The translations under genes were made by a program, and so were the position numbers. The notes beneath the pieces are model-generated. The model had not been told where the DNA came from, did not search any database, and worked only from the letters and a program-made list of their open reading frames with translations. From assembly GCA_002842095.1 (NCBI GenBank), contig PHCB01000006.1, positions 3,814-67,813 of the forward strand: a stretch of DNA of 64,000 nt, in the 5' to 3' direction. The DNA is from a candidate division BRC1 bacterium HGW-BRC1-1. GTDB taxonomy: Bacteria > Sumerlaeota > Sumerlaeia > Sumerlaeales > Sumerlaeaceae. The stretch's first letter is position 1; every line of letters begins with the position of its first letter. Below are positions 3,273 through 42,596 of the stretch, one piece after another.

Positions 3273-3306
3273 GGCGGCGACCGGCGAGGGCGCCGGTCCC
3301 ACATTA
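3273..3306. repeat. REP-like hairpin element, family R1, copy 1 (GGCGGCGACCGGCG-AGGG-CGCCGGTCCCACATTA)
   Basis: 8-bp perfect stem GACCGGCG/CGCCGGTC with a 4-nt loop. Near-identical copies at 7111, 10219 and 42564. Confidence 0.7.
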
Positions 3307-3325
3307 ACAGCACGCTCTCCTGCAA

Positions 3326-4525
3326 TCAGCGCGGCAGGGCGAGCTCCTCGCTCAGCACATAGAACGCCCTCGGCACATGGAAGCAGCCCTTCCACTTGCC
3401 GCCCTTCAGCGATAGCAGCACCTCGCCTCGGCGGTTCAGATAACCGAACCATTCGCCGTGCTCCTTGTCTGCGAAATGCTCCCACGACCACGCGTGCAGC
3501 CGCTCGAACCACTCCCACGCCCGCGCGCGCACTTCCGGCCTCGCGCTCAGGCGCGACGTCTTCGCCAGCGCGATCAGCGCCTCCACGTGCACCCACCACA
3601 GTTTCTGGTCCCACTCCAGCTTCTCCGGCGGACGCCCCTTCGCATCCATGAAGTAATAGATCCCGCCGAACTCCTTGTCCCAGCTATAGTCGAGAATGTT
3701 GAACACCACATCCGCGCACTTCTCGATCAATGCCGCGTCGCCGTTGCGCTCCCCGATCGCCATCAGAAACCACATCCCCTCCAGCCCGTGGCCGGGGTTC
3801 AGCAGGCGCCCCTCGAAGGTATCCGGATGGCTGCCATCGGGCGCCACCGACTCATAAATCAGCCCGCTCTCCTTGTCGAGGAACCGCCCCATCACCTCGC
3901 CCACCGCCTCGTCCAGCCGCTGGCTCAGCACCTCCGGTCCGAGGATCCACTCCAGTTCCAGCGCCAGATTGCACAGGATCATCGGCAGCGTGTACCCCGC
4001 CATGGGGCGCGTCTCCGCAATGGCCTTCGTCCATGGCCCCTTGGGGTTGTCGCGCCGCCGCACAATCCCCTGCCACGCCGCCAGCGCCATCTCACGGGCA
4101 TCGTCCTCGCCCGTTGCCAGACCGTACTGGCTGAAAGCCATCGCCGCAAAGCAGTCCGAAAAAATGTTGTACGGATGCACCAGCGGCTTGCCCTCGCGCG
4201 TCAGCGAGAAATACCAGTCGCCGTTTTCCGCCCGACCGTGACGCCGCAAAAAGTCCGCCCCCTGCCGCGCCATCTCCAACCACTCGGGGCGCTTTTCCAG
4301 ACGGTTGTACAACATGGAAAACGTCCACACCTGCCGCGCCTGCAACCAGATGAACTTGTCCGTATCGTAAACCTCACCGTCGCGTTCGAGGCAGGTGAAG
4401 TACCCGCCGAACTCGCGATCCGGCGAATGCTGCATCCAGAACGGCACCACATTATCTAACAACGCCGCCCGATAATGTCCCGCCAGTTCCTTCGCACGCT
4501 CCGACACCTTGGACATATCCTGCAT
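3326..4525 (-). CDS. N-acylglucosamine 2-epimerase (AGE) family sugar epimerase
   Basis: 399-aa ORF, alpha/alpha-toroid-like, W-rich ([40 protein letters not shown]), as in AGE/cellobiose-2-epimerase family proteins. Confidence 0.65.
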
Positions 4526-4767
4526 GACGAAACCACCTCACAAAAATAATCAAACCGCAGCCCCAACACCACCCGCGCACTCCCCCACCCAAGCGCCAGA
4601 GCGTCAAGGGCGATGTGGCAAGCCACAGCGATAGAAAAAAAGTCCGTACCCTCACAACCATCAAATGTGCGACCGGCGCCCCCGCCGGTCGGCACCAGAC
4701 ACCACCATCACGCAACATTGTTTCTCCTCGATTATTACTAATCACCCATCCTATCTTCGCTCCCACT

Positions 4768-7062
4768 ATGGCCGACCCAACCGCGCCCCTCGATTTACCC
4801 GCCAGCCTCCTCGCCGCGGCCGACTGGACCGCGCTCGAAACCCTTTTGCTCGACCTCGACTTCCTTGAAGCAAAGGCCGTCGCCGGCCAGACTCGCGAGC
4901 TTCACGCGGACATGCTCGCTGCCGCCGAAGCACTCCCCGACGACCGTCCCGCGCAGCACATCCTGCGACTCCTCGCCGAGGCCGTCGCACGCCATATCGA
5001 TTTCATCCACGACAACCGCGAGCACTACCCACAGGCGCTATTCCAATGCCTGTGGAACCTCGCATGGTGGTACGACAACCCCGCCTCGGCGCCCTTCTAC
5101 GACGCGCCCCCCGACGGCTCACCGCCATGGCAGGCCCCTGATCATCCGCTCCAAACCTTACTGGAAAAATGGCACGCGCAACGCCAGCTTCGCGACCCCG
5201 GTTTCGTCTGGATCAAATCCCTCACACCTCCCGGCCTTCCCCTCGGCTCCTCGTTCGTCGATCGTCTTTCCGGTGCGGGCAAGGCACGTCTGGTTTGCTT
5301 CTCTCCCGATGGCGGGCTGCTCGCCTGCGCTTGCGGTTACAATACCGTGCAAGTGTGGGAACCCGCCACCCGTCGAAAAATCGTCGAGCACCAGTTCCAT
5401 CGCGAATCGCCAGTTTATCTGCGCTTCACCAACGACTCCCGCGCCCTGTGGGTCGTGCCCCATTCATTGCCTCCTCCAACCGAAAAAGTCACACCACCCG
5501 TGGTGAGCGTGAACCTCATGTTCGACTGGCAGACCGGCGAGCCACGCTACACGCTCGAAATTCCATTCAATCCGTATACCCACTTTCGGCCATCTCCGGA
5601 CGATACCCTCGTCGCCGTGTCAACGGGCGACGACCATTCCGTCGTCGAAATCGCCACAGGGCGCGAACTCTGGCGCAAGGCTTATAAGGGAGAGTATGCG
5701 AACCGAATCAGTTTTTCTCAGGATGGTTCCCTCCTCGCTGTCACACGAGGAAAAAAGATTAATATCCTTCAAGCCCGCACCCGCGAATTGCTCCGCACAC
5801 TCATCAACCCGGCAGGTCAAATAGCAGGGATTTTAGACACGCTGAGATTTTCACCCGACGGCCGATACGTCAGCAACGAGCTGATGCAATCCGTGGATTT
5901 CGATCCACTGCCCGGCATGCGCCACTCCGACTGGTCCTGGTCATGCCTCAGCAGCCCCGGCGCAATGCACTACGCGGTCGTTTGGTGGCGGACAGAGGAT
6001 GGGCAATTCCTTCACTCCGTTGATCAGGGAGAGTGGAATATGGCCGATGCGACATTTTCACCCGACGGACAATCCCTTGCCATCATTTCTCCATACGGGG
6101 CGGTCTCCATCCACGACACCGTAACCGGGGACCTCCGCAACACTTTCAACGACCAGTCTGGCCAGGCCCATGCCATCACATTTTCTCCCGATGGTTCATT
6201 GCTGGCCGTCGCTTCCAAAGTCGGAATCACACTTTGGAATACCGCGCTTCCACGGAAGGTTAGTTCGCGTATTGGCCACTCCATGCGCATCAAGGATTTT
6301 TCGATTTCCCGCGACGCCACCTGTGCCGCCACAGCCAGCGAAGACTGCTCCACGCTCCTTTGGGAAACATCCACTTGCCAGCCCCGCCTGAGCATCAGCA
6401 CCCCGGATTACCCACACAAAAAAGTGAGCCTCGCCCCCGACGCCGGCACGGTCGCCATCGCCTGCGACTTCGGCATAATCTCCATTTACGACACCGCGAC
6501 CAGCGAACGACTCGTCGCGTGGAGAGCCGTGGAAGACGATCCCGTCGTTCAATTGGTCCACTCACCCGACGGCGCGCTGCTGGCTACGAGCGGCATGTAT
6601 GATCACGACATATGCCTTTGGGACGCGCGCACGGGCGACTTGCGTATCCGTCTCACTAGCCACACCGATCACGTCGACTCGGTCCGCTTCACCGCCGACT
6701 CGTCGCATCTTGTCTCCACATCCTTCGACACCACCTGCGTGTTATGGAACGTGCGTACCGGCCGACAGGAGCGCGAGTTCCATCCTTTTGCAGATGCAGA
6801 TGCTTTCCTGCCGCCGCCGGGCGGGCCGGTGGCTACGCTCTTCTTCAACTACGACAGACCCGTGCGCTTCGCGCGTCGCGAAGACCAAGTCGTGATCGCC
6901 ACATATCCCGAACCCGTGATCGAGTTGAAACCCCACCCCGACGGGCGCCATTGGACCGGTGCCCAAGGCAATCACCTCATCCAACTGCGCCTCGAAGGCG
7001 ACGTATCCACCGCCCCCGGCTATAAGGTGGAAACGGAATCATGTTCGTGCTATTGCCAATAA
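4768..7062 (+). CDS. WD40-repeat protein with an approximately 180-aa N-terminal helical domain
   Basis: ORF-track frame starts at 4615; ATG at 4768 (MADPTAPLDL) is the plausible start. At least 10 WD-like repeats (FSPDG.LLA…, LWNT, LWDARTG, VLWNVRTG). The N-terminal region (LLDLDFLEAKAV…LWNLAWWYD) is not assigned to a known family. Confidence 0.7.
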   Translation: MADPTAPLDLPASLLAAADWTALETLLLDLDFLEAKAVAGQTRELHADMLAAAEALPDDRPAQHILRLLAEAVARHIDFIHDNREHYPQALFQCLWNLAWWYDNPASAPFYDAPPDGSPPWQAPDHPLQTLLEKWHAQRQLRDPGFVWIKSLTPPGLPLGSSFVDRLSGAGKARLVCFSPDGGLLACACGYNTVQVWEPATRRKIVEHQFHRESPVYLRFTNDSRALWVVPHSLPPPTEKVTPPVVSVNLMFDWQTGEPRYTLEIPFNPYTHFRPSPDDTLVAVSTGDDHSVVEIATGRELWRKAYKGEYANRISFSQDGSLLAVTRGKKINILQARTRELLRTLINPAGQIAGILDTLRFSPDGRYVSNELMQSVDFDPLPGMRHSDWSWSCLSSPGAMHYAVVWWRTEDGQFLHSVDQGEWNMADATFSPDGQSLAIISPYGAVSIHDTVTGDLRNTFNDQSGQAHAITFSPDGSLLAVASKVGITLWNTALPRKVSSRIGHSMRIKDFSISRDATCAATASEDCSTLLWETSTCQPRLSISTPDYPHKKVSLAPDAGTVAIACDFGIISIYDTATSERLVAWRAVEDDPVVQLVHSPDGALLATSGMYDHDICLWDARTGDLRIRLTSHTDHVDSVRFTADSSHLVSTSFDTTCVLWNVRTGRQEREFHPFADADAFLPPPGGPVATLFFNYDRPVRFARREDQVVIATYPEPVIELKPHPDGRHWTGAQGNHLIQLRLEGDVSTAPGYKVETESCSCYCQ

Positions 7063-7063
7063 G

Positions 7064-7144
7064 TTCATAGCCATCTGCGGATGAAACAGGTTTGCGTGAC
7101 CGCAGTATCTGGCGGCGACCGGCGGGGGCGCCGGTCCCACATTA
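7064..7144. repeat. R1 REP-like element, copy 2, with 5' extension (CTGCGGATGAAACAGGTTTGCGTGACCGCAG hairpin) and one ATCTGCG heptad
   Basis: Core GGCGGCGACCGGCGGGGGCGCCGGTCCCACATTA at 7111–7144. The extension is shared with the copy at 10186. Confidence 0.7.
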
Positions 7145-7227
7145 AAATCTATGGGACTCTATTGGGAGTTTCCCCTCTAAGCGGTGGCTGCCCACTCAGC
7201 AATCGCGGCGTTTTTTTGATAGCTCCA

Positions 7228-9800
7228 TCACTTGCGGTTTTCCATCACATCCCTTGCTGCCCGCGCGCGGCCGAGGGCGTGTCCAATCCCCGAATCGTCC
7301 GGCCAGCGCTTCTCGCCCTCCTGCGCCACCCGCTCCGCCACGTCGGCGCGACCCAGCGCCATGCACGCCGCCGATGCATCCGACACCGTTTCGGCATCCA
7401 CGTCCTCACGGGCGACCTCGGCCACGAGCGTCTCCAGGCCGCCTGCGCCAAGGGCCGCATCCACCATGCGCTGCCTTGCCGCCACGCGCGGTTCCAACAC
7501 GGTCACCCCCGACTGCGTCCCCGCTCGCGTCAGCGTCTCATACAAGTTCTTCGCACCCTTCAAATCGCCTGATCGCCATAGCCACAGGTCCATTTCATAC
7601 GCATCCACCCTTACAAACTGTTGAAAGAATAACCCTGCCTGTTCCCCCAGTTGCTGCGCGTGCCTCGCGAAGCTCTCCACTCGCACCGCCCTCGCACGGA
7701 GCGTCAGCGATTCCAGTTCTTCCGCCAGGTCATCCTTGCCCGCCCGTCGCCACAACACTGCCAGATACCCCTCGAAAAACGGTGACAGTGGATGCGCCCG
7801 CAAGCACGCACGCACGGCCCGGCGCTCTCTACGCGGCTGGCTCATCACCCGCGCCACGTCAATCTTCTCCATTCGTGTTTTAGACGCCGTCTCCCCGGGT
7901 CGCGCCGCAAGTGGTGCGGCTTCGTCCCACAGTTCCCTGCGAAGTGGCGTGTCGGGCATCCCCATCACCGCCTTTGCCCATAACTTGGCGCTGAAACCGC
8001 GAAGCGCGTCGAGCGCCGGCAACCGTTCCGTGTCCGTTGTCGCCGCGTCCAGCGCCCACAGCCACGGCACCGGATTAGCAGCCCACTCCCGCCCGGCCGC
8101 TTCAAGATCTTCTACCGATGGCCGCTTGCCCGAGTTCATCAGGGGCGAAATGTGCGAGAACGCTATACCCGCCGCATCATCTTGCACGGCATGCGCAAGC
8201 ATCCATCCATTTGCCCCTGCAATCCCAACCAGCAGCAGACCCGCTGCAATCCATACCCGACGCCCGCGCAGCCACCAAGCCCGCGTTCGCCACCCCCCCA
8301 GCGCCAGCACCACCACGACCGCGCCGCATGCCGCCAGCGCCGCTGCTGCACCCCCACGCCCTGCTGACAGCAACGCACCCACACTGTCGTATTGCATCGG
8401 CAACGTTGTCAAATACCCCGGAAATTCACGCCAGAAATCCCAGCCCAGCAGCGCCACTTCCGTGGCGAAAAACGGGCGCATGACCTGTCGTTCGAACCCC
8501 ACCGCCAGCACAACATTTGTTGCCACCACCAGTGCGCTCCACATGGGAAGCAACCCCAGCACACGCCGCGGCAGCCGCGCATAAACAGCAGCAAGACCCA
8601 CAGCGAAAAACGGCAGCAGGCTCGCAAAGCGCCGCATCCCGAACGACGAACCCGCCCACCAGTCGCCCGCGCACGCGTTCACGTAAACCGCCACGGCCAC
8701 CGCCGCAACCATCCCCGCGTGCGCCGACCACAACCGCCGCGGTATCACCAATCCAGCCAGCAGCCCCACCGCTCCTACCGCCAGAATCGGATGCCAATAG
8801 AACGCCCCATTCCACCCGGAGAATAACAGGTTCCACACCTCCGGCTGGCCCCAGCGCATGAAGCTGTCTCCCTGGGGAATCGTCAGCCAGTGCCCCAAAT
8901 ACGCCCGCCAATACGAAGCTTGCAGCGAAAACACGGCAGCAAACGCCACCCCCGCCGAAACCACTCCCGCCACCAGTCTCGTCGCGTTATAGCCTGCCTT
9001 GGGCTTGTTTTCTGATATCGATTCCCCCCCCCCCCGTGAATCCCAGACGCACGCCGCGCCATCTCTACCACCCAAAACCCCGCAGGCACCAACCCGAGCA
9101 CCACATCCTGCCAGCGCACAATCGTCACCAAGCCAAGCGCCGCACCCACCGCAACATAACTGCCCACCCCGTGAAATTTGCGCAATCGCATCGACAGCCA
9201 CAATAGCAGCGCCGTGGCAAACGCTGAGGAGGCATGGGACATCGTGGGATACCCGAACAGATACCCCAACAGCGTGCTGCCCAGACCCGCACCCAACGCG
9301 GCGTGCAGCGCCACTCGCTCGCCAAACCGCATTCGACACGCCTCGTACATGAGCAGCAACGCGAGCAGTCCATAAAACGCTGACCCCAGCGACACCGCCC
9401 ACCGGTACGGCGCCGAATAACGATCACCCGCCCAAGCCGGCGCACCCCACGGCAGATGCTCCGACACCAGGGCTGTCCCTCTCACCACGGCGAAAAAAGG
9501 CGACCACAATGCCGACGTACCCAACGCGAAATAATTACTCACCTGCCCCTGGTTGTTCGGCGTGCTCAGTCTGTCGCGCAGCGTCTCCACCGAATTGTTG
9601 CTCAGTGCCACATCGTTGGCCAACACCAGATCGCCGTCGAAGGCGGGTGACGAAAGATAAGAAAAATAAAACATATCATCGTAACCCACGCCCGACCACG
9701 GCGAAAACAACATCAAGAACAGCAATCCGAAAACCGCACCCAACACCCTGCGGTGCCGTCGCGCCCTCACGCTACGCCTCAAAATGCGCACCGCCCGCAT
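7228..9800 (-). pseudogene. Large multi-TM membrane protein, putative GT-C fold (PMT/ArnT-like) glycosyltransferase with a C-terminal soluble domain; frameshifted at a C12/G12 homopolymer
   Basis: Two overlapping minus-strand ORFs (8883..9800 and 7228..9402) in different frames. The membrane-protein-like sequence continues from the first frame (…ARRASGIHGGGG) into the second (GGGESISENKPKAGYNATRLVAGVV…) exactly at the homopolymer at 9024–9035. The N-terminal 120 aa of the 7228..9402 ORF looks non-coding. Confidence 0.55.
9024..9035. repeat. C12 (minus strand G12) homopolymeric tract at the frameshift site
   Basis: Counted directly in the sequence. 13 or 10 residues would restore a single roughly 855-aa reading frame. 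Confidence 0.8.
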
Positions 9801-10078
9801 GGCCTTGATGAGCTTTTAATCCTATTGAGTAGTCCACGTATCTCGATCCACTTCGGTGACGATTTTTTAGCGGCTCCCACATTGCTCGCAGAACCGAAGA
9901 ACACATGAAACAAAACGATCCGGTAACCGCGCCAGAATTGCATCATGGAGTTGGGACGACAGAGTTGAAATTAATACCCCAAGATTTTTCAAATCATTTA
10001 CAGCAGAAATATCGAGTATACGACGATATCCACTACAACCTCCCGAGCGCGAGGTGCCGGATAAACCTCTTTGTAGAA

Positions 10079-10107
10079 ATCTGCGTAAATCTGCGCCATC
10101 TGCGGAT
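10079..10107. promoter_or_regulatory. Three phased direct repeats ATCTGCG-N3-ATCTGCG-N2-ATCTGCG-GAT (family R2), about 300 nt upstream of the GT-C-like gene start on the minus strand
   Basis: Identical triple-heptad arrays occur at 28568–28596 and 33796–33824, with a single heptad at 7073. Confidence 0.45.
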
Positions 10108-10185
10108 GATTTCTGTGGTCCCTCCGGGGCTTGATATTTAGGTGAAGGGTTCCCTTGCCCGCTCTGCGGGAAAAAACAATCTGGG

Positions 10186-10251
10186 GATGAAACGGTATTG
10201 CGTGACCGCAGCGCCCTGCGGCGACCGGCGGGGGCGCCGGTCCCACATCAG
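10186..10251. repeat. R1 REP-like element, copy 3, with the same 5' extension as copy 2 (GATGAAACGGTATTGCGTGACCGCAG…GCGACCGGCGGGGGCGCCGGTCCCACAT)
   Basis: Sequence identity to 7081–7144. Lies just downstream of the map-NUDIX operon end. Confidence 0.7.
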
Positions 10252-10290
10252 AATTGAGGGGGCTTACAGGTTCTCCAGTTCCGCGTCATG

Positions 10291-10863
10291 CTATCTGGCA
10301 GTATAACCGATCACCAATCGTTGCGCCTTGGCCAGGGCGCGCCTTAACGGCGGGTCTAACGCGAGGTCAGCAGTTTCGTCCCAGGTGAACCAGCACATGC
10401 CCAGGTGCTCCTCGGGACGGTGGGCTATTACCGCGCCTGCGGGGGCGACCAGCAGGAATCGCAGATCCAGATGTCGATGCTCCGCCACTTCGCCGCGCGC
10501 GGGGATCACGTGCACGTCCACGTCCAGCGGGCGCGGTGCATCTGGATGCGCTTCCAGCCCGCTGATCCCCGTTTCCTCGTGGGCCTCGCGCATTGCCGCG
10601 GACAGCGCGTCCGCGTCGCCCGGTTCGCCGTGACCGCCCGGTTGAAGCCAGCGGTCCAGTTTGCGATGATGTCCCAGCGCCACACGCAACCCCGCGGCAT
10701 CCACCACGATGGCGCTGGCGGTCAGATGCCCCGCTGTTATTGCGCGATCAAAGGGCGCTGCGTGTGCGTCCACAAATGCGCGAATCTCAGCCAGGTCGGT
10801 CGCTTCCTGCGCGTCCTGGGGCTGATGTGCCGCCAACTGCGCTACCAGTTCCGACCCCATCAT
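10291..10863 (-). CDS. NUDIX hydrolase
   Basis: Nudix box GGHGEPGDADALSAAMREAHEETGI. ORF-track frame extends to 10953, but an ATGATG at 10863 overlaps the map stop (ATGA coupling). Confidence 0.7.
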   Translation of the reverse strand: MMGSELVAQLAAHQPQDAQEATDLAEIRAFVDAHAAPFDRAITAGHLTASAIVVDAAGLRVALGHHRKLDRWLQPGGHGEPGDADALSAAMREAHEETGISGLEAHPDAPRPLDVDVHVIPARGEVAEHRHLDLRFLLVAPAGAVIAHRPEEHLGMCWFTWDETADLALDPPLRRALAKAQRLVIGYTAR

Positions 10864-11618
10864 GCGGTCAGAATCACGGGGCCGTCCTCGGTGATGGCCA
10901 CGGTGTGCTCGAAATGCGCCGACACGCTCTTGTCGGCGGAGATCACCGTCCAACCGTCGGCCAGCGTTTTCGTCTTGCCGGTGCCAATGTTCACCATGGG
11001 TTCGATGGCGATGACGGTGCCCGCCTTCAGGCGCATTCCGGTGTCGGTCTTGCCGTAGTTTAACACTTGCGGCGCTTCGTGCATTTCGCGCCCGATACCG
11101 TGGCCGGTGTACTCGCGCACGATGCCGTATCCGTGGGGATCGATCGCCGCCTGAATGGCGGCCGACAGCGTGCCCAGACGCACATCCGGCTTCAGCACGG
11201 CGATGCCCGCATACAGCGATTCCTGTGTTACCTTGAGCAGTTGCGCAACCTCATCCGACACCTTGCCGATGGGGTAGGTCTTGGCGGAGTCGCTGCACCA
11301 ATCTTCGAGAAACAGTCCGCAGTCGATGCTCACCACGTCGCCCTCGGCCAGGTGACGCTTGCCGGGGAAACCGTGAACGATCTCCTCGTTCACCGAGGTG
11401 CAAAGCGTGGCGGGGAAACCATGGTAGCCGAGAAACGCGGGCTTGGCCCCTGCGTCGACAATCAGCTTGTGGGCGATACGGTCCAGTTCGCCGGTGGTCA
11501 CGCCGGGGGAAATGTGCTTTTCCAGTTCGTTGAAAACCGCCCGCAACAGCTTGCCCGATGCGCGCATCTTATCTATCTCGGCCGCGCTCTTTAACCAGAT
11601 GGTTCCGCTGGTTCCCAT
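10860..11618 (-). CDS. map: Methionine aminopeptidase type I
   Basis: …IWLKSAAEIDKMRASGKLL…, with metal-ligand regions GHGIGREMHE and EHT. ORF-track N-terminal extension (to 11771) looks non-coding. AGGAGA Shine-Dalgarno sequence 8 nt before ATG 11618. Confidence 0.8.
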   Translation of the reverse strand: MGTSGTIWLKSAAEIDKMRASGKLLRAVFNELEKHISPGVTTGELDRIAHKLIVDAGAKPAFLGYHGFPATLCTSVNEEIVHGFPGKRHLAEGDVVSIDCGLFLEDWCSDSAKTYPIGKVSDEVAQLLKVTQESLYAGIAVLKPDVRLGTLSAAIQAAIDPHGYGIVREYTGHGIGREMHEAPQVLNYGKTDTGMRLKAGTVIAIEPMVNIGTGKTKTLADGWTVISADKSVSAHFEHTVAITEDGPVILTA

Positions 11619-11789
11619 GGTTGCTGCTCTCCTGCTGTTACCTGAATGTCGGCGGCCGGCCCCACCCGGGGTCACGTCCGCCGATGATACCAGAAACGAA
11701 TCGGGCGACAGCACCCGGGGTTTTCGGCCCGGGGCGGTCGCCCGTCGGTTCACAACTTTGTTAGCCGGCAAAGCGGCCCGTGCTGTGCG

Positions 11790-13205: not shown

Positions 13206-13298
13206 GGTTCAGGATACCCTCGGAAAAGACTTGGTTCATTACGTAAAAACACGCCCGCTCACTCAGGAAGTGAAAGCGGGCGTGGTCAAGATGCTTTT

Positions 13299-13760
13299 CT
13301 ACTCTGCTTTGGCGCCAGGCGCCACAGCGGTGCCGCCCGCGTTCTCGATTTTTTCCTTGGCGGTACCCGAGAATGCATGGGCCTTTACCGTCAGCTTCTT
13401 GCTCAGGTCCCCGTTGCCGAGTACCTTCACACGCTTGGCGTTCATACGCACCAGACCGGCTTCCTTCAGTAACTCCATGGTTACGTCAGTGCCGTTGTCG
13501 AAAACTTCGAGAGAGGCAACGTTCACCACTTCGAATTCCTTGCGGAAAATGTTAACGAATCCGACCTTGGGCAAACGACGCTGCAAAGGCATCTGTCCGC
13601 CTTCGAAGCCGCCGCCGTAACCCTTGCCGCGTCCGCTGCGCGCTTGAGAACCTTTGTGGCCGTAGCCGGACGTCTTGCCATGTCCACTCGACTCGCCACG
13701 GCCCACACGCTTGCGCTTCTGCATGCGACCGGGATCTTTGCCCAACTCGTGAATCTTCAT
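13299..13760 (-). CDS. rplO: 50S ribosomal protein L15
   Basis: [11 protein letters not shown]…[22 protein letters not shown]; start chosen at MKIHEL (ORF-track extension overlaps rpmD). Confidence 0.9.
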
Positions 13761-13764
13761 CTCG

Positions 13765-14004
13765 TTAGTCCAACCCGTTAGTTTCGGTGTTCTTCGTCTG
13801 GTTCTTGGTAGCTTGCTGCTGATTCTCTTTTTCAACCTTGATCAGATAACCAACCTGCTTCAACATGCCGGCAAGCTGGGGCGTCATGACATGCACGCGG
13901 GTCTGATTGAGGCGTGTGAAACCCAACGCCTTCAGGGTCCGGCGATGTCCGCCAAGGCGGTTGATGCCGCTTTTGATCCAGGTAACTTTGACTGTCTCAG
14001 CCAT
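13765..14004 (-). CDS. rpmD: 50S ribosomal protein L30
   Basis: [39 protein letters not shown]. Confidence 0.9.
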
Positions 14005-14009
14005 CGTAG

Positions 14010-14735: not shown

Positions 14736-14801
14736 TGTCTCGCCTCGTTTTTCTCAGTCAAATCGTTGTCACCCTTAGCTGGTGACGGGGCAGGGCTTAC
14801 C

Positions 14802-28186: not shown

Positions 28187-28323
28187 AAAACTCTCGTGAA
28201 GTAACGACGGGAATTTTACGGCTTAATCCGGTTCGGTTCCATCGCTGGCTTCAGGCCCTGACGCCCTCCTTTTTCATCCCAACTCGGGCGCATGCCAATG
28301 ACTGCGCCTGCCCCCCGACCACC

Positions 28324-28706
28324 TGGGCGGACACACAGGTCCGCCCCTACGATCGGGTCTGGTTTTCCAACAAAGGAATTCGCGTTAATTAGCGTCCATT
28401 AGCGATTCGTTATTCGCCTTGGCGCGGGCTTACGGCACGCATCACGAGAGCGCGGGAATTGGCGCAGGAACGATCGGGGGCAGGAATGCCCCCGCCCCTG
28501 TCAGGAGGAGGACATTCCTTTCCCCCTACCATTCGGTTTGGCGGTGAACGGAACGGTCAAAGAATCCATCTGCGATCATCTGCGCCATCTGCGGATTCAC
28601 TCCGTGGGCACTTGGGCGGACACACAGGTCCGTCCCTAGGATTGGTTTCGGTTTTTCCAACAAAAGAATTCGCGTTTGCGTCCATTTGCGGTTCGTTTGT
28701 TTGCTT
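28324..28706. repeat. Composite intergenic repeat locus A: R4a (28324–28416), R3 hairpin GGGGGCAGGAATGCCCCCGCCCCTGTCA (28476–28503), R2 ATCTGCG heptad triplet (28568–28596) and R4b (28613–28706)
   Basis: R4 is TGGGCGGACACACAGGTCCGCCC (8-bp stem hairpin) …GGTTTTCCAACAAAGGAATTCGCGTT-A-TTAGCGTCCATTAGCG-TTCG. All subelements recur at 32.0–32.25 kb and 33.74–33.94 kb. Confidence 0.75.
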
Positions 28707-31910: not shown

Positions 31911-32036
31911 GCTCTGTCCCCACCCTCGGGGGTGGGATTGTGGTTCATGAAAATGGAGTGTTCCGCGCTGGCATGGGCGGAACACTCTTTCTTTTTGCGG
32001 GAAGGATTAATCGCCGCCAATTCAACTGAGCTTACT

Positions 32037-32240
32037 CCGGGGGCGGGAATGCCCCCGCCCCTGTCACCCACATTCGGGTCCCCCAACGAAGTAAAGTCTG
32101 AGCTTGCACACCGGTTGCACACCGGTTGCACACCGGTTGCACACCGGGGACATTGGGCAAACCGCCCCTACGATCGGTTCTGGTTTTCCTATTTTACAGT
32201 TCGCGTTCATCCGCATCAATTAGCGGTTCGTCATTCGCCC
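32037..32240. repeat. Composite repeat locus B: R3 hairpin (32037–32069), four tandem 11-mers TTGCACACCGG (32104–32147) and a degenerate R4c (32152–32240)
   Basis: Direct sequence comparison with locus A. The element runs to within 10 nt of the stop of gene 32251..33657. Confidence 0.75.
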
Positions 32241-32250
32241 AGGCGCGTAC

Positions 32251-33657
32251 TCACCGCGCGCGCATCACGAGATCGCCGACGCTCATGGTGCCGTTGGTTG
32301 CGTCGTAGATGAGGGCGCCTTGGTCGTCGTGCTTGTCGGGGCCGAGGCTGTAGAAGCCCGCGGTGTCCGAGCGCGGGAACGACGCGCTTGTGAACGGGTC
32401 CATCGGCTCGGTGGCGATGTACTTCGGCACGAGATCGCCCGGAGCGGACGGGGCGGCGCCCCCTTCCAGTTTCGCTATACGCTCTGCCAGCGCCACCTCC
32501 GTGAGGTGGAAGTGCGCGGCGGAAACCCTCTCGCGGATGGACGTCTCGAGGAAGTTGGGCGAGGCGAAGGACAGCAGCGCGTCGCGCACCATATCGCCGT
32601 ATGGGCCGGCGTACTTGAACATTTTGATAAAGTTGAACTGCTGCTGTTGGTCGTTGCGTGCCTCAAGCATCTCGGCATACTTGGCGCGCAGCGGGTCGTC
32701 AGGCGCGAGTTGCTGCATCCTCCACTCGGGATAGAGTGTAATGGAGTTGATACTCTGGTCGAACAGGTAGGTCACGGGCTTGGAAAAATCCAAGTCCACC
32801 GGGAATCCCTCGCGCTTGAGCGCGCGCAAGTTGCCCAGCGTGTCGGCAAGGGCGATGTCTTCCAGCATGGGCTCATTAACTTGCGCATCGAGGCGTTCCA
32901 TTTCGGCAAGCGATGCCCGCAGTGCCGCCGTGTCATCGCACTGCGCGGCGATGTCGGAGATGGTGGCAGTGGCCATGCGATTCACGGCGATAGCGATGAG
33001 TTGGGATATCAGCGTGGAGGCGGGGTGCCTTCGCGCGAGCGCCAGAACGGAAGTGGCCGTCGCAAGCCCGCGCGAGGTCTCGCCGTCGAGAGCGTCGAGA
33101 CGCGCGCTGAGCAGGGCGACCTTTGCAGCGGTCTGGTAACCAAGAAACTCTACGGCGCTTATCCCGCCGATGGGCGTGTCGGCGGCACCCGTGTCGTAGT
33201 CGGGCCGGGCCGAAAGCGCAAGTGTTGCGGCAATAAGCTCGGAATCCTGCTTGACGAGAGTTGCAGCAGCAGCGCGATCCGCAGCGGACAGCGGCGGTCC
33301 GTACACCATTTGCGCCAAGATTGTCGTGATCGAAGCCGTATCGCGCCCGTCTGGCGATGCTGCCTCGGGAGTCACGGCAAGGGGTGTAACGTCGCCCGAA
33401 CGATTTCTAAAGGCGTCGCCAAAGGCAGTAAGTGCCACCTGCGTTTCCGGCGAGAGCGGTTCAACCTGCGCCCACGAGGCCGGAACCTGCGGAGGCTTGT
33501 GTGCCCGTTCGATCATCGCGAGCTGGTCTGGCGACATCCTGCTGCGCAGGTAGGACCGCAAGCCGTACGGCACCACGACAAACACCAGCACACCCAGCAC
33601 CACCAAAGTAATGAGACATCCCTTCAACTTGCGCTGCCGCGTCCATGTTCCGGTCAT
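32251..33657 (-). CDS. Hypothetical membrane-anchored protein (N-terminal signal-anchor, alpha-helical extracytoplasmic domain)
   Basis: 468-aa ORF; TM LITLVVLGVLVFVVVPYGL; no recognisable catalytic motif. Its last 7 codons (…DLVMRAR) are encoded by sequence that is also repeated at 28437–28457. Confidence 0.5.
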   Translation of the reverse strand: MTGTWTRQRKLKGCLITLVVLGVLVFVVVPYGLRSYLRSRMSPDQLAMIERAHKPPQVPASWAQVEPLSPETQVALTAFGDAFRNRSGDVTPLAVTPEAASPDGRDTASITTILAQMVYGPPLSAADRAAAATLVKQDSELIAATLALSARPDYDTGAADTPIGGISAVEFLGYQTAAKVALLSARLDALDGETSRGLATATSVLALARRHPASTLISQLIAIAVNRMATATISDIAAQCDDTAALRASLAEMERLDAQVNEPMLEDIALADTLGNLRALKREGFPVDLDFSKPVTYLFDQSINSITLYPEWRMQQLAPDDPLRAKYAEMLEARNDQQQQFNFIKMFKYAGPYGDMVRDALLSFASPNFLETSIRERVSAAHFHLTEVALAERIAKLEGGAAPSAPGDLVPKYIATEPMDPFTSASFPRSDTAGFYSLGPDKHDDQGALIYDATNGTMSVGDLVMRAR

Positions 33658-33741
33658 CTGTGGGTCTCCATTCTGATTTCATCCAAACAGGTGTTAGACG
33701 CAAGTGCGCGGGAAAACGATGACACGCGCTTGAACGATTTC

Positions 33742-33935
33742 GGGGGCAGGAATGCCCCCGCTCCTGTCAGAGTTGCTTGAATGGTCAAAGAATCCATCTG
33801 CGTTCATCTGCGCCATCTGCGGATCGATTTCGTGGCAATAGACGGGCACGCTGGTCCGTATCAAAAATTGATTTGTTGTTTTTCTAATAAATCAATTCGC
33901 GTTTATTCGCGTCCATTAGCGGTCAACAATTCGCG
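33742..33935. repeat. Composite repeat locus C: R3 hairpin (33742–33770), R2 heptad triplet (33796–33824) and R4d (33841–33935)
   Basis: R4d supplies the last 11 codons (VRELLTANGRE*) of gene 33903..35750. Confidence 0.75.
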
Positions 33936-35750: not shown

Positions 35751-35896
35751 GAGGTCAGCCGGCCACGGCCGAAATAATGGGAGTGATAAGAAGAATGGGA
35801 GTTATGAAAAACGGAAGCTGTCAGACCAACCATTTACATCACTCTCATAATTCCCAGAACTCCCATACTTCCCATTTCTTTGAACCCACCCGCCTC

Positions 35897-37741: not shown

Positions 37742-37837
37742 GGCTTTTGAACTCCGGTGGGGGGTGTTGGATAATGCGCAACAGGCATAAAGGATGCAGA
37801 GGATGCAACGCAAGGGGGATTTCAAAAACGGAAAATT

Positions 37838-38100
37838 TGACGCAAAGACGCGAAGGACGCAAAGAAAAGCAGAAGCAAATGCTTCGACACAAAGACACAA
37901 AGTCACAAAGGAAAACCAAAGATCAGAAATTCAGAACTCAAAGATCTCGATAACCATTCTCCACCAAACCCAGCTAACTACTAATTTAGTTTTGATTAGT
38001 TTTCACTTATAACATACCCTCGGAATGCCACACGGTGTAAGGGTCATCGGACAATCGTCTTCAGTTTTTTTCGCTTTTCTTTGCGTTCTTTGCGCCTTTG
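37838..38100. repeat. Pair of inverted approximately 32-nt arms (GACGCAAAGACGCGAAGGACGCAAAGAAAAGC at 37838–37869 and its near reverse complement at 38068–38099), each built from 9-nt-phased CAAAG-containing repeats
   Basis: Direct comparison. A related direct copy GGCACAAAGGCACGAAGGCACAAAGAAATGC is at 42128–42160. Confidence 0.6.
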
Positions 38101-38138
38101 CGTCGGGATTTTTCGCTATTTTTTGTGTCGCGGAAATT

Positions 38139-38183
38139 AAAAAAAGGGCAGAACCTCCGGATTCAACTCCGGTGGTTCTGCCC
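38139..38183 (-). terminator. Rho-independent terminator for gene 38216..39982
   Basis: On the minus strand: GGGCAGAACCACCGG-AGTTGAAT-CCGGAGGTTCTGCCC followed by TTTTTTT. Confidence 0.7.
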
Positions 38184-38215
38184 GACTTACTTTTAGTTGT
38201 TACGTGAAGACTGGC

Positions 38216-39982
38216 TTAGAAAAGCTGCCAATCGGTGACGCTGGCTCCGACCGGGGGAACCACGCTGGCCCAGGTGCCACCGGCGCGGACTGCGTCGATG
38301 TCGGCTTCCCAGGGGTTTCCGAAGTTTTGCTGACGAACCACAAAGCCCGACAGGTAGGAGCTGGAATCAGTTTCCGTGCCCTGCTTGGTAACCGTCTGGA
38401 ATGCGGTGGCCGGCTCGGTGGTCGGGAACGGATCGGTCGCTGCGAAGACAAACAGCTTGCTCTCGTCGTCTGCGGCACCGTTGAAGGAGTACTTCACAAC
38501 GATCAGGTAGGTCTGATCGACGTTCAGATCAACACCCACAGGGACCGCAGTGCTGAACAGGAAGAAGCTGTGGCCAAGGCGGTAGGTTGAAGCACTGGTA
38601 CCAGCCATCATGTAAAGCGCACTGCGGGTGAAAGTACCCGATCCCTCACGGAAGCCGGTCAGTTGCGGGTTGCTGGCGCTCACGTTCGCGCCGCCCGTGG
38701 GGACATTCAGCAGAAAGCTCTGGTACACCGAGCCATCGGCAAGGGGTGCGAAGGGTGCCACAACGCCCTGACCGTTTGCAACAGCACCCAACGCCTGGAT
38801 CTTGTTGCCCAGCGACGCTGCGCGACCCAAGCCCGTGAAAGTGAGCGAGGCGGGAAGAACCTGAGCGGCTGTGCCCGACTGGAATTGAACCCAGGGGCCG
38901 TTGCCAACCAGATCGCCAGCGGGATAATCAATTTCGTCATAAAGGAACAGGCCGGCAGGATTGTTCGCCGTGGCAAGAGCCTTGACGTTTTTGTCGGTCG
39001 TGCCGGCGGTGGAAACTACCACGTTGCCCTCGAGCACACCAGCAGCGGCGGCGGTAGCGCGCACGTCGATAGACGTGACGGCTACACTGCCACTGGCAGG
39101 AACCAGAGAGACGGAAGCGCTATAGGTGGGGTCGGCGGTCTTCTTCACTTCGAAGCCGGCGGGAGGTGTGACGACCACATTGCCCGTCAGGTTCGCGCCA
39201 GAAACATCAAAGCTCTTGGCGGCAGAGACGCCCGGAACCGGCCAGACGTTACCGAAGGAGCCGAGATCTGTGGTACTGACCGTCAGAGATGGGGAGGCAG
39301 CGGCACCGGAGGTGATGCTGATGTCGTCGATGCCGACAAACTCATCACTGCCACCAGCATTTGCCGTAATGATACGAATTTGAACCTCTGCCTGATTTTC
39401 CACTGCCACAGGCAATGTGACGCTAACTGGTGTTACCAGGGTTGCCAGGCTGGGCCCTTCGGTCGCATCGGCGACAAAGCCGCCAGCAACATTGGTGAAG
39501 TCGCCCGTACTGCCTATACGATACTGTAAGGCAACCGGCTGGATGGCATTGTCCACAGCGTCATCGATGTCGCGAAGATTATAAGAAATCTGCACGCCTG
39601 TTTTGGCGGTAGTGTTAATGTGGATAACAATAGCCGGAGCATCGGCGGTACCCGAACCCTGCATCGCCACCACGGGATTCGCGATCTCCGCCTCAATTAC
39701 GCCACCCGAAGTGTACGTGCCAGGAGAAGTGTTGTTAGCGATAACGTTCACTGTTCCCTCGAACGCCAGAATCGTTTGCGGGTCTGTGCCCGTGGAGCCC
39801 GTGAGTGCATCACCGCGATACCCCATGATCCCTGGTACGCCCGACCAGTCGTTGTCCACCGTGATCAAGCCCGTGTTCGTCCAGTCCTGCGAAAACGGCA
39901 GGGTCTGGTAGGTGGTGTCGGCCAGAGCCGGGGCGGCGAGGGCGAGGGTCAGCCCTATGGTTGCAATATATTTCTTAAACAT
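38216..39982 (-). CDS. Secreted beta-rich surface protein (signal peptide; Thr/Gly/Ser/Val-rich, likely repetitive beta-sandwich domains)
   Basis: 588 aa; MFKKYIATIGLTLALAAPALA signal peptide; composition typical of S-layer or adhesin-like proteins; no catalytic motif. Confidence 0.5.
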   Translation of the reverse strand: MFKKYIATIGLTLALAAPALADTTYQTLPFSQDWTNTGLITVDNDWSGVPGIMGYRGDALTGSTGTDPQTILAFEGTVNVIANNTSPGTYTSGGVIEAEIANPVVAMQGSGTADAPAIVIHINTTAKTGVQISYNLRDIDDAVDNAIQPVALQYRIGSTGDFTNVAGGFVADATEGPSLATLVTPVSVTLPVAVENQAEVQIRIITANAGGSDEFVGIDDISITSGAAASPSLTVSTTDLGSFGNVWPVPGVSAAKSFDVSGANLTGNVVVTPPAGFEVKKTADPTYSASVSLVPASGSVAVTSIDVRATAAAAGVLEGNVVVSTAGTTDKNVKALATANNPAGLFLYDEIDYPAGDLVGNGPWVQFQSGTAAQVLPASLTFTGLGRAASLGNKIQALGAVANGQGVVAPFAPLADGSVYQSFLLNVPTGGANVSASNPQLTGFREGSGTFTRSALYMMAGTSASTYRLGHSFFLFSTAVPVGVDLNVDQTYLIVVKYSFNGAADDESKLFVFAATDPFPTTEPATAFQTVTKQGTETDSSSYLSGFVVRQQNFGNPWEADIDAVRAGGTWASVVPPVGASVTDWQLF

Positions 39983-40222
39983 TTTCGATGAATCCTCCCG
40001 AAAATAAGATGGGTTTTTTGATGACGCTTTGACTTACATCCCGTGGAATTTTTCTGCGGCGGGTTAACGTAATAGGAATCACCGCCTGAGCGTCCTGAAT
40101 CAAGAAAAACCTTGCCCCGAAGGCAAAATTTTCCACCGCGACCGGCGCGAACACTCACACCGCTGAACTTGGGGTGCGCGACACCCTTGACTTTTCAAAG
40201 CGTCGCCACGGTATTTGGTCCC

Positions 40223-40888
40223 ATGAAAACCAAACCTTATTTTTCACTCATGGCCGCCGGTGCTGCGGCCCTTCTGATAACCGCCTGTGGCGGAGAAAAA
40301 ACCGAACCAACCGCCACCACCCCCGAAGCCGAGGGGAACGTACCGACGATCGTCCTGCCCGAAACCACTCCGGCCCTCAGCGTGGCCCCGCCCACACGCG
40401 AGAGCCCCGAACCAACCTCCCCCACCGCCACCTCCGCGCCCAGTGATGAGACCACCGCCCCGGCAGTCAACCCCGCGCCAGAAACCTCGGCCCCCATGGC
40501 CATGGCCCCACCCCTGGATGTGCGCGCCGCAGTGACACCCGCCCCCACGCCGGTGATTGAAGAGAACATCCCCCCTGCCGCAGCTTTGGCCACGGTGCGC
40601 TCCGTGCTCGTTACCATCGACCCGCTGACCCAGCCGCGTCTGACCGCAGATAAAGAAGCCGTTATGCGCACCAACATGATGCACGTAATGCGCAAAGTGG
40701 AAGAGCCGGGAGCGTACAGCAAGGACGACCGGGAAAACGCCTCGGAACTGGCGGGAAAAATTGCCTATCAGTTTGAGGAAGCTCGCAACGCAACCAACGC
40801 CGATGTCACCATCAAACATTTAAAGCGCGCCGAAGAACTGCTTGGGCCGCTGGAAGAGACCGTGTCGCACGGCGCGGAATCTCAATAA
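40223..40888 (+). CDS. Lipoprotein with Pro/Thr/Ala-rich linker and a small C-terminal domain
   Basis: MKTKPYFSLMAAGAAALLITAC (lipobox LITAC), then PTATTPEAEG…APTPV low-complexity region. ORF-track start at 40112 is upstream of the signal peptide. Confidence 0.55.
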   Translation: MKTKPYFSLMAAGAAALLITACGGEKTEPTATTPEAEGNVPTIVLPETTPALSVAPPTRESPEPTSPTATSAPSDETTAPAVNPAPETSAPMAMAPPLDVRAAVTPAPTPVIEENIPPAAALATVRSVLVTIDPLTQPRLTADKEAVMRTNMMHVMRKVEEPGAYSKDDRENASELAGKIAYQFEEARNATNADVTIKHLKRAEELLGPLEETVSHGAESQ

Positions 40889-40918
40889 ACGCCTTCGGGG
40901 CGAAAGGTTTCAGGGCAT

Positions 40919-42118
40919 ATGATTTCTTCGATAATTCTCGCCGCCTCGGTGGCGGTGGCAGCCGTGTTTTCGGGCGGGCAGGTGACGCAGGATGATCTGA
41001 AAGCAGATGCATTCTTGCAGCGTGCACAACGACTCGATGAAACTCTGGAGCAGGCCACTGAGATGGCTCCGGTGGGGAGTGACGCGTACACCTCGGCCGT
41101 TCGGGCTATTGCGACCACCAAAATTCTGGCGGCTGCGGCCGGGGAACGGGGATTCCGGGCCGACGAGGCGGAGCGTAACGCTCGCGACGCAACCCGTCTG
41201 ATAGTTCTGCGCAAGATTTTCTATCTCGAACAGATAGCACCTCGGGTGCGCGATGCGCGGGCAGTCTATCTTCATCAGTTACAAAAAGCCCATGCGGAAA
41301 ACCCCGAGCTTTGCGAGGTTCCCGGAGAGTATTTCTTCCGTTATATTTTCATCGGCGATCCGAAGAGCAGCACGACTCCGCGTTGGGATGATCTGGAAAC
41401 CAGTGCGCTGGCGGTGCGCAAGAGGCTCGAAGCTCCCGGAGCGGATTTTGAGAAGATCGCCCGGGAAACGAGCAACTCGCAACCGCCTGAAAATCGCGGC
41501 ATGCTGCTGGGTCCGGTTACATCCCGGGGGATGGAATCGACCCGTACCCAGGCACTGGAGAAGGCGCCATTGGACGGTGTGAGCGAACCCTTCAAAACCA
41601 ACCGTGGCTGGATGATGGTGAAGATGGAGAAGCGTACGCCCCAGCGGATGCTCTCACCCGAGGAATCGTCGGAGACATTGGTCATGGCGCGCAAGCTACG
41701 GCGGTTCATGCCCGAAGCGGTGGAAACCAGCGTGACGCTGGAAGCTGTTGGAAAATACCCCCTTAAAATCGATGAGGCTGCTCTGTCATCGGATCCCGGC
41801 GCTGCCGACAAGGTGGTGGTGGAATCGCCCCTCTTCACTTTAAAAAACGGCGATATTTACGATAAGGTCTGGAAGAGCGTAAATCCTGTTCCCGAACCGA
41901 AGGATTTGTTGAGCGGCGCGGGAACCGTGGCCACACGAATGACAGTGGCCCGCATAGCCGAGAGAGACTTCGTGAGCCGGCAGCAGGTTTATGGCGATGC
42001 ATTGAAAACGATCGACGAAGCCACCGCCGCTGCCGCAGCCCGCCGCCTCGCCCCCGAGGTGCGCGACGGTGATGCGCTGCTGAAGGACAAGGGGTTCGAA
42101 ATTAAGGCGGGACGATAA
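40919..42118 (+). CDS. Parvulin-type peptidyl-prolyl cis-trans isomerase (SurA/PrsA-like periplasmic chaperone)
   Basis: N-terminal signal-like segment and helical chaperone region; PpiC-like motif …ADFEKIARETSNS…NRGMLLGPVTSRGM…PFKTNRGWMMVKMEKR. Confidence 0.55.
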   Translation: MISSIILAASVAVAAVFSGGQVTQDDLKADAFLQRAQRLDETLEQATEMAPVGSDAYTSAVRAIATTKILAAAAGERGFRADEAERNARDATRLIVLRKIFYLEQIAPRVRDARAVYLHQLQKAHAENPELCEVPGEYFFRYIFIGDPKSSTTPRWDDLETSALAVRKRLEAPGADFEKIARETSNSQPPENRGMLLGPVTSRGMESTRTQALEKAPLDGVSEPFKTNRGWMMVKMEKRTPQRMLSPEESSETLVMARKLRRFMPEAVETSVTLEAVGKYPLKIDEAALSSDPGAADKVVVESPLFTLKNGDIYDKVWKSVNPVPEPKDLLSGAGTVATRMTVARIAERDFVSRQQVYGDALKTIDEATAAAAARRLAPEVRDGDALLKDKGFEIKAGR

Positions 42119-42563
42119 AAGCGAAGCCTTTGGCACAAAGGCACGAAGGCACAAAGAAATGCAGGATGGGGCAAGGGCGTTCCGAGGCTGTTTGTGTTGT
42201 GAGATGACCAGCGCTCTATAAGCGGTACCATCCAAATGTGGGCCCGACGCCCTCGCCGCTCGCCGCAAGGCATTGTCTGCACGCCAAACCGTTTTTCCGA
42301 CGGAAGGATCTCTCGCAGGGCCGCAGGAACAAAACGGTTAGTTTATCCTTCAATCGGATTTTCTGGTGGGGGGTTCATCGCCGTTTGCGTTGTCAGATTC
42401 CGCCGCTCCTCCGGAGCGGGCTTTTAGGTGGGACGGTTCCGGGGGTTCCGGTCGCTGCGCTCCCTCCACCGCCCGGCTACTTGCCGAGCCCCCTCCGGGG
42501 GCACAAACACCATGACAGTTCACACCTGTCTGTATACAAAAAGCATATTGAGGACACAGCTGT

Positions 42564-42596
42564 CAGGCGACCGGCGAGGGCGCCGGTCCCACATTA
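42564..42596. repeat. R1 REP-like hairpin element, copy 4 (CAGGCGACCGGCGAGGGCGCCGGTCCCACATTA)
   Basis: Identical hairpin core to the copies at 3273, 7111 and 10219. Confidence 0.7.

Follow-up and report, generated by a model that had tools for sequence, protein, structure and literature searches.

What are the near-identical hairpins that recur between the genes of an uncultured bacterium, and to what kind of system do they belong? The question is raised by 64,000 nucleotides of candidate division BRC1 bacterium HGW-BRC1-1 (phylum Sumerlaeota; assembly GCA_002842095.1, contig PHCB01000006.1, positions 3,814 to 67,813), referred to below as the window. A sequence-only reading of this DNA had described a dispersed hairpin family and had put it forward as candidate repetitive extragenic palindromic (REP) or terminator elements and as possible recombination breakpoints. 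The hairpins were followed within the window, along contigs of the same strain and through public genomes and metagenomes. They are very probably the canonical short REP sequences of a REP/RAYT system, in which RAYT denotes a REP-associated tyrosine transposase.

Copies and structure of the repeat

The hairpin GACCGGCG-NNNN-CGCCGGTC occurred five times in the window against 0.10 occurrences expected from dinucleotide shuffles. The 29-mer GGCGACCGGCGRGGGCGCCGGTCCCACAT, searched with up to 3 mismatches, occurred six times against 0.00 expected. A covariance model (R1) built from 36 family members of other genomes and run over the window with filters off returned the same six copies (Table 1); the next match scored 12 bits (E = 0.24). 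No alternative-stem variants of the hairpin were hidden in the window. Four copies with an 8-bp perfect stem, always intergenic, had been described previously. All four were recovered on the + strand, and both the stem and the intergenic placement held, the latter for six of six copies. The copy number was raised from four to six, as a − strand copy at 4665 and a decayed − strand copy at 42236 had been missed.

The SecY protein of the window shares a 90%-identity cluster with that of HGW-BRC1-1, a member of Candidatus Sumerlaeota. Public contigs matching the window at 99.8-100% identity were found in JGI samples 3300038334-6 and in ENA entries ERZ27239240-43. These same-strain contigs reach 6.7 kb past the left end of the window and 9.5 kb past the right end, the differences consisting of scaffold Ns, an 8-nt gap and a change in the length of a poly-C tract. 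A seventh copy was located on one of them (L168), 7 kb past the right end of the window and between YajQ and a Glycos_transf_4 gene, giving a total of seven copies in ∼80 kb of the same strain (window plus flanks).

Copies are listed on the strand on which CCCACA comes after the hairpin; the other strand gives the canonical REP sense, 5'-GTGG-hairpin. Read in that sense, the element is 5'-GTGG followed by GACCGGCG-CCCY-CGCCGGTC, an 8-bp perfect hairpin with GT[AG]G at its foot. The complete unit, 5'-(R)T-GTGG-GACCGGCG-CCCY-CGCCGGTC-(R), is ∼24-26 nt long with a G+C-rich stem and a conserved 4-nt loop. TGTGG stood directly 5' of GACCGGCG in five of the six window copies, the exception being copy 2 with GTGC, and the DNA folding energy was −11.8 to −15.8 kcal/mol for five of the six. 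The foot of the seventh copy is CCCAGA (CTGG in the REP sense). Copies with an altered foot (copy 2 and the L168 copy) or a decayed stem (copy 6) are predicted to be inactive relics. Copies of the window strain also carry a strain-specific GGC prefix and T suffix.

In canonical REPs the hairpin has a 5' GT[AG]G tetranucleotide at its foot (Ton-Hoang 2012; Quentin 2018; PMC6006769), and in short REPs foot and stem together measure 10-13 nt (PMC6006769). The element described here has a foot of 4 nt and a stem of 8 nt, 12 nt in all. Rfam 15 gave nothing at gathering score over the whole window. At E ≤ 1 the sole match in 7000-7230, the region of copy 3, was RF01090 (18.2 bits; gathering score 45), which is unrelated and lies outside the REP.

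RAYT genes flanked by the repeat

At one related locus (L006) the hairpins were found to surround a 195-aa open reading frame (ORF) with a VMPDHAHM motif. The ORF matched Pfam Y1_Tnp at 25.7 bits (cut-off 23) and had 332 homologues; for many of these the source gives the name 'REP element-mobilizing transposase RayT'. Four proteins were tested against NCBIfam models. All four passed NF047646 (REP_Tyr_transpos) with 80.7-97.9 bits (cut-off 80), and none exceeded 19.6 bits against the IS200 model NF033573 (cut-off 55). The best solved-structure match was PDB 4ER8, the TnpArep of E. coli, and it was weak (E = 0.043).

Seven RAYT homologues, 64-100% identical to one another in alignment A2, were obtained from related loci, not from the window. 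At all seven loci (P0001, P0003, P0005, P0006, P0007, P0008, P0013) the same hairpin was present on both sides of a single Y1 HUH/Tyr gene at a distance of ∼60-400 nt, inverted at four or five of the loci and direct at two, which resembles a REPtron. Alignment A2 holds ten enzymes, the seven flanked ones included. PDHxH and Y-x3-NP are invariant in it, and W145, Q146, D151, H152 and R155 are invariant or nearly so. These five positions are the counterparts of W94, Q95, E100 (as Asp), H101 and R104 of the E. coli enzyme, and the alignment with 4ER8 shows W-Q...(D)H..R. The E. coli residues that contact the GT[AG]G guide lie in this region, and Asp in place of E100 has been reported for subclasses 2.5 and 2.7 (PMC6006769).

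More distant RAYTs (52-55% identical) had REPs on their flanks that share the architecture but not the stem, either GTGG or GTAG followed by AACAGCCG-CCCY-CGGCTGTT or, in a Sedimentisphaerales bin, GTAG followed by CCCAGCCG-CCCC-CGGCTGGG. The stem sequence therefore tracks the enzyme while foot and loop persist. A RAYT/TnpA-REP gene, which the sequence-only reading had proposed to look for, was thus present at seven of seven related loci in other genomes and absent from the window and its ∼16 kb of flanks.

Conservation across public genomes

A scan of one genome per species returned 27 DNA stretches containing the 26-mer, of which 23, in about eight metagenome bins, were kept. Alphaproteobacterial matches (L009, L017, L019, L023) were set aside as unrelated hairpins with other loops and a conserved gene-end context. 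The bins are labelled Hydrogenedentota (three) or Hydrogenedentes (one), Sumerlaeota (one), Armatimonadetes (one), Nitrospiraceae (one, with matches on 13 contigs, often at contig ends) and unclassified bacteria (two); these phylum names are the labels of the metagenome bins and were taken as given. At least 120 stretches were returned by a metagenome scan for the REP core. Viral contigs contained 2 matches only, with no sign of a phage vector.

Conservation was limited to ∼26 nt, Y-GACCGGCG-RGGG-CGCCGGTC-CCACA-Y, and the flanks were without information (163 unique copies). In an alignment of the family (A3) double changes were present in five of the eight stem pairs, and 99% of cells were paired. 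The rows of A3 were partly chosen for having a stem, so a count over members gathered on sequence similarity alone (up to 6 substitutions, 221 members) is the fairer test and addresses this bias. Among these members the loop was RGGG in 206 and the foot CCACA in 193, and the stem changes comprised 57 compensated changes, 18 G-T wobbles and 57 that disrupt pairing. Perfect alternative stems with the same loop and foot were found as GACCGCCG/CGGCGGTC, GACAGCCG/CGGCTGTC, AACCGGCG/CGCCGGTT and GCCGGGCG/CGCCCGGC, and further as GACCGGTG and GACCGCTG; by our own estimate, chance would supply ∼0.002 such hairpins in the megabase examined. Compensatory changes maintain the stem while loop and foot stay fixed, and the hairpin structure is under selection.

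Placement relative to genes was assessed with crude gene calls based on G+C content at third codon positions (GC3). Only 20 of 196 copies (10%) were genic, compared with 73% of positions overall (p ∼2e-77), leaving 176 extragenic. The hairpins constitute a dispersed, multi-copy, extragenic family with a fixed foot and loop, physically associated with a RAYT that has both the catalytic and the guide-binding residues. Related loci also contained 21 inverted doublets, 17 of them with feet outward, and all 21 paired the GACCGGCG type with another stem type.

Two further regularities were considered and rejected. Throughout the window the REP is antisense to its upstream gene; elsewhere the split was 33 against 20 in 53 co-directional contexts (p = 0.10), and an orientation rule is not general. 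A small ORF on the complementary strand (ATG TGG GAC CGG CGC CC, MWDRRPRRS...) was discarded, as the T that makes the ATG is present in only 23% of members and the flanks are unconserved.

Several related loci contain tandem expansions of the REP or of parts of it. At L006 (∼5110-5330) five units of CATGACCGCCGAGG and four of CATGACCGGCGAGGG precede a full REP, which is followed by three units of CCGGTCCCACATG. At L027 (∼990-1230) two to three units of GACCGGCGA are followed by a REP and then by two to four units of CCACAT, and at L025 (∼250-310) a REP is followed by two units of CGCCGGTCCCACAT. About 13 direct tandem REPs with a period of 41-42 nt are present at L022 (2010-2560). The tandem sub-REP expansions could be slippage products or footprints of RAYT cleavage and rejoining. 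In bin CAZFOG01, labelled Nitrospiraceae (L002, L003, L008, L012-L016, L018, L020), the REP lies inside a conserved repeat unit of ∼110 nt, …CATGAGCC-N4-GGCTCACCCGT-GACGATGAAAA…REP…TCCGGAAGGGA…, which in places is repeated in tandem and is frequently found where contigs end, suggestive of a composite element in high copy number at which the assembly breaks.

Gene context of the copies in the window

Gene context was taken from Pfam matches and from gene calls on identical public contigs, and it is against these that all six window copies are intergenic. At least one stop codon lies 21-172 nt upstream of five of the six and of the seventh on L168. Copy 1 is 21 nt downstream of the stop of the GlcNAc 2-epimerase gene and copy 2 is in the divergent intergenic region between the starts of the epimerase and WD40 genes (4525 and 4768). 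Copy 3 lies between the convergent ends of the WD40 gene and an 838-aa gene. Copy 6 is 117 nt downstream of the PPIase stop, and copy 5 is 172 nt downstream of the stop of the FlgD_ig-domain gene. Copy 4 follows the stop of the NUDIX gene at a distance of 42 nt, NUDIX being the last gene of a − strand cluster running EF-Tu ... S5-L30-L15-SecY-Map-NUDIX, which bears out the earlier placement of one copy at the end of the ribosomal-protein operon. The accompanying statement that conserved downstream genes are missing also stood for the larger ORFs of the window, among which no Pfam match to the alpha-operon proteins (rpsM, rpsK, rpsD, rpoA, rplQ) was obtained, smaller ORFs having been left unscanned.

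Table 1. Hairpin copies, their extensions and neighbouring genes, in window coordinates
Feature	Position	Strand	Details
REP copy 1	3276..3304	+	GGC GACCGGCG AGGG CGCCGGTC CCACAT; DNA hairpin −11.8 kcal/mol; 46.8 bits
REP copy 2	4665..4693	−	Stem perfect, 2 mismatches, tail GCACAT (foot GTGC, not GTGG); −15.8 kcal/mol; 36.9 bits
REP copy 3	7114..7142	+	45.7 bits
REP copy 4	10220..10248	+	46.1 bits
REP copy 5	42566..42594	+	46.9 bits
REP copy 6, decayed	42236..42264	−	3 substitutions, stem unfoldable, foot intact; 17.3 bits, E = 0.009
Extension of copy 3	7073..7113	+	ATCTGCGGATGAAACAGGTTTGCGTGACCGCAG...; begins 11 nt past WD40 stop codon
Extension of copy 4	10179..10219	+	
Partial extension of copy 2	4694..4724	−	
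GT4 glycosyltransferase	1688-3004	−	
GlcNAc 2-epimerase	3326-4525	−	
WD40 protein	4768-7062	+	
838-aa gene of unknown function	about 7238-9754	−	Stop about 7228-7238
NUDIX	10291-10953	−	
PPIase	40919-42118	+	
FlgD_ig-domain protein	42767-44287	−	

A 5' extension shared by two copies had been noted beforehand, and it was recovered: over 86 nt, 7073-7158 matches 10179-10264 at 83% identity. A third copy has it as well, since 4664-4724 and 7083-7143 are 82% complementary. The extension is 31-41 nt long in its three copies, that of copy 2 being partial, and was found only in contigs of the same strain. The second hairpin that had been ascribed to it, CTGCGG...CCGCAG, did not hold up. Perfect arms are present solely at 7075-7080/7100-7105. 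At 10179 the 5' arm reads CTGGGG, with a different pairing in the fold of minimum energy, and at 4665 the hairpin is absent. It is therefore not a conserved structure. A hammerhead-like reading of GATGAAA in the extension was likewise dropped, as the extension is confined to the same strain and Rfam gave no such match.

Inverted repeats of 61 nt (4664-4724 and 7083-7143), each a REP plus extension with its foot outward, enclose the WD40 gene, an arrangement also seen at four or five of the seven RAYT loci. This could be coincidence or a REP-bounded cassette.

Alternative explanations

The hairpins might instead be mainly transcription terminators or protectors of mRNA 3' ends at operon ends, their repetition reflecting convergent or duplicated regulatory signals. 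The positions past stop codons given above fit this explanation, three of these copies lying between convergent genes. Every unambiguous window copy is oriented such that the local transcript would carry a 5'-UGUGG-hairpin, and convergent intergenic regions are somewhat over-represented in the family (26 of 96 two-sided cases). However, no copy is followed by a T-run on either strand, and no REP hairpin was among the 18 terminator-like sites called by a terminator scan in 2900-10400. The hairpins are therefore not intrinsic terminators, and the terminator half of the sequence-only proposal is without support. Copy 2 lies in a divergent promoter region and the orientation bias is not significant (p = 0.10 as above); neither a fixed loop and foot across phyla is needed by a terminator, nor would flanking of RAYT genes be expected of one. 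This explanation is judged unlikely as an account of the family.

The proposal that the copies mark recombination or rearrangement breakpoints, for example a loss of the alpha operon after Map-NUDIX, is considered very unlikely. It draws on the position of copy 4 past the last gene of the ribosomal-protein cluster, with the usual downstream genes not found among the scanned window ORFs, and on the bracketing of the WD40 gene by the 61-nt inverted repeats of REP plus extension. However, comparative support is lacking. The comparison of breakpoints, like that of insertion polymorphism, is uninformative because every retrievable contig is of the same strain (99.8-100% identity). REPs accumulate in any tolerant intergenic region, and adjacency to an operon end is therefore expected without rearrangement.

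Scarcely more can be said for the hairpins as ends or miniature derivatives of an IS200/IS605-type insertion sequence (palindrome-associated or miniature inverted-repeat transposable elements, PATE/MITE) mobilised by a classical TnpA-IS200, and the probability assigned to it was a shade lower still. The associated enzyme is of the same Y1 HUH superfamily (Pfam Y1_Tnp), and subterminal hairpins with a guide tetranucleotide on the 5' side are a feature of IS200/IS605 elements too (PMC8266576). However, the four tested enzymes score above the cut-off of the RAYT equivalog and below that of the IS200 model, no tnpB is present beside the RAYT genes, and the 718 kb surrounding 120 REP loci yielded no transposase. 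The same hairpin stands on both sides of the RAYT genes, inverted or direct, where an IS200/IS605 element would have distinct left and right ends on one strand.

The 8-bp perfect inverted repeat with its 4-bp spacer and intergenic position would also suit the operator of a dimeric DNA-binding regulator, but this can practically be dismissed, as compensatory changes keep intra-strand pairing and not a fixed half-site, the conserved loop and one-sided GTGG foot make the element asymmetric, and most copies are at gene 3' ends, not promoters, in a family associated with RAYTs. A CRISPR array (clustered regularly interspaced short palindromic repeats) was rejected on spacings of 1.4-32 kb, mixed orientations and the presence of genes between copies.

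The identification as REPs, confirmed for the REP half of the original description by the GT[AG]G foot and hairpin, the multiple extragenic copies and the flanking of RAYT/TnpAREP genes in other genomes, must itself be weighed against several observations. A RAYT gene was sought without success in the window and in the 6.7 kb to its left and 9.5 kb to its right in the same strain, so that this genome's own cognate enzyme is unobserved; the close RAYT homologues trace to samples other than that of the window strain. Only seven copies were seen in ∼80 kb, and they are clustered. The window contains singlets only and none of the inverted doublets (REPINs) regarded as the mobile unit in Pseudomonas: no inverted partner was present within 120 nt of any window copy, and the closest inverted pair, 42236 (−) and 42566 (+), is 300 nt apart with one member decayed. 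Insertion polymorphism is not visible, all comparable contigs being of the same strain, and some of the covariation was measured on copies chosen because they have a stem.

Comparison with known systems and proposed mechanism

The closest likeness is to the Group 3-type short REP/RAYT systems, represented by the REPtron Sm of S. maltophilia and the 'short REP' of TnpAY1 subclass 2.5, which are built in nearly the same way. In S. maltophilia the REP measures 23 nt, with an 8-bp perfect palindrome and a 3-nt loop of which positions are specifically recognised (PMC8266576). Both it and the present element have a GT[AG]G foot directly 5' of an 8-bp perfect palindrome, a loop of 3-4 nt and a length of ∼23-24 nt. 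As in subclass 2.5, foot and stem here fall within 10-13 nt, the conserved loop is consistent with loop-specific recognition, and Asp replaces E100, any placement of the enzyme in a published subclass being tentative. Unlike that of S. maltophilia, the foot here is GTGG and not GTAG, the stem and loop sequences differ, and the hosts are uncultured Sumerlaeota, Hydrogenedentota and Armatimonadota, not Proteobacteria.

With the REPs of E. coli, its bacterial interspersed mosaic elements (BIMEs) and TnpAREP (RayT, 4ER8), the family shares extragenic hairpins, the 5' GT[AG]G foot and a REP-flanked Y1 HUH enzyme, and the doublets of related loci pair two REP subtypes in the manner of Y/Z pairs. E. 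coli REPs differ in being ∼35 nt long with an obligatory bulge, whereas those described here are short and perfectly paired; the protein similarity is weak (as measured above), and the window copies are singlets. The REPINs of Pseudomonas fluorescens are likewise short palindromic extragenic repeats flanking a RAYT gene; a REPIN is reportedly, after Bertels and Rainey, an inverted REP doublet forming a long hairpin. No doublet is present in the window, and REPIN/RAYT systems are described as mainly vertical and lineage-specific, whereas the core here is nearly identical across bins of several phyla. Rho-independent terminators share the G+C-rich hairpin mostly just past genes, but here there is no U-tract, the sequence itself is conserved, the loop is fixed and the foot is one-sided.

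If the system works like those of E. coli, Stenotrophomonas and Marinomonas (PMC8266576), its hairpin would extrude on single-stranded DNA and the RAYT would bind its loop and foot. The enzyme would then cut close by, at a dinucleotide selected through its cross-pairing with the foot, and rejoin the strands, so that REPs would be copied or moved into intergenic DNA. A GTGG foot predicts cleavage at CC or CA; in S. maltophilia the change from GTAG to GTGG redirects cleavage to CC (PMC8266576). This prediction of the guide model is directly testable. A role for the host, such as protection or stability of mRNA 3' ends by copies just past stop codons, is possible.

Distribution across phyla

Much is known of REP/RAYT systems, and their occurrence extends beyond Proteobacteria (PMC6006769). 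REP/RAYT pairs are usually said to be lineage-specific and for the most part vertically inherited (PMC5581495). Patchy distribution and transfer over long time scales are already acknowledged. No paper treating REPs in Sumerlaeota or Hydrogenedentota was present among the ten best full-text matches.

The near-identity of the 25-nt core in bins of different candidate phyla might be the notable point, being mildly unusual. Tentatively, and with rather more doubt than confidence, a single REP/RAYT lineage with an almost invariant 25-nt core (GTGG + GACCGGCG-CCCY-CGCCGGTC) may be common to bins of at least two to three candidate phyla (Sumerlaeota, Hydrogenedentota and Armatimonadota), plus the bin labelled Nitrospiraceae. 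This would imply fairly recent horizontal spread of the whole REPtron, at odds with the usual view of vertical, lineage-specific inheritance, and the tandem sub-REP expansions might then be traces of its enzyme at work. Cross-phylum sharing, if true, would offer a test case for horizontal transfer of REP/RAYT systems.

With the nature of the repeats settled, there is no need to chase them as a new RNA or regulatory element. The consensus and covariance model are ready for REP annotation in Sumerlaeota and Hydrogenedentota assemblies, where REPs evidently break contigs, and the family brings to the known REPs a short, perfectly paired type from uncultured phyla that has a GTGG foot and a strongly conserved loop.

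Other features of the window

A 30-nt inverted repeat (3088-3117/3209-3238, 90% complementary, 91 nt apart) is present in the epimerase-GT4 intergenic region and adjoins REP copy 1. Inside the 838-aa gene, positions 9024-9036 are a 13-nt poly-C tract (poly-G on the coding strand). A same-strain JGI contig has 11 C and an intact ORF, whereas the 13 C of the window split the gene into ORFs 7228-9402 and 8883-9800, and another public contig ends exactly at this tract. Either a homopolymer assembly error or a phase-variable tract would account for it.

Blocks of three CATCTGCG words, 67-89% identical, are present at 10062-10118, 28551-28607 and 33779-33835, and the CATCTGCGGAT word of those blocks also opens the REP extension at 7071-7082. 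Two of the CATCTGCG blocks are surrounded by a ∼200-nt intergenic repeat family (28320-28504, 32037-32261, 33740-33934). At 32104-32147 and 44661-44700 TTGCACACCGG occurs in 3-4 tandem repeats, the two sites being mutually inverted and 98-100% complementary.

Arrays with a 9-nt period (ATGGACNNN, 5-7 units) stand behind a G-run at 51119-51184, 60700-60765 and 62517-62582. They lie ∼70-230 nt upstream of + strand genes, namely a polysaccharide deacetylase, an unknown 502-aa ORF and a creatininase, and look like putative promoter-proximal binding-site arrays. GC skew is negative to ∼27 kb (1-27000) and positive at ∼46-54 kb, with a cumulative minimum near 36-42 kb, and gene strand bias shifts in parallel; a candidate replication origin near this minimum is possible.

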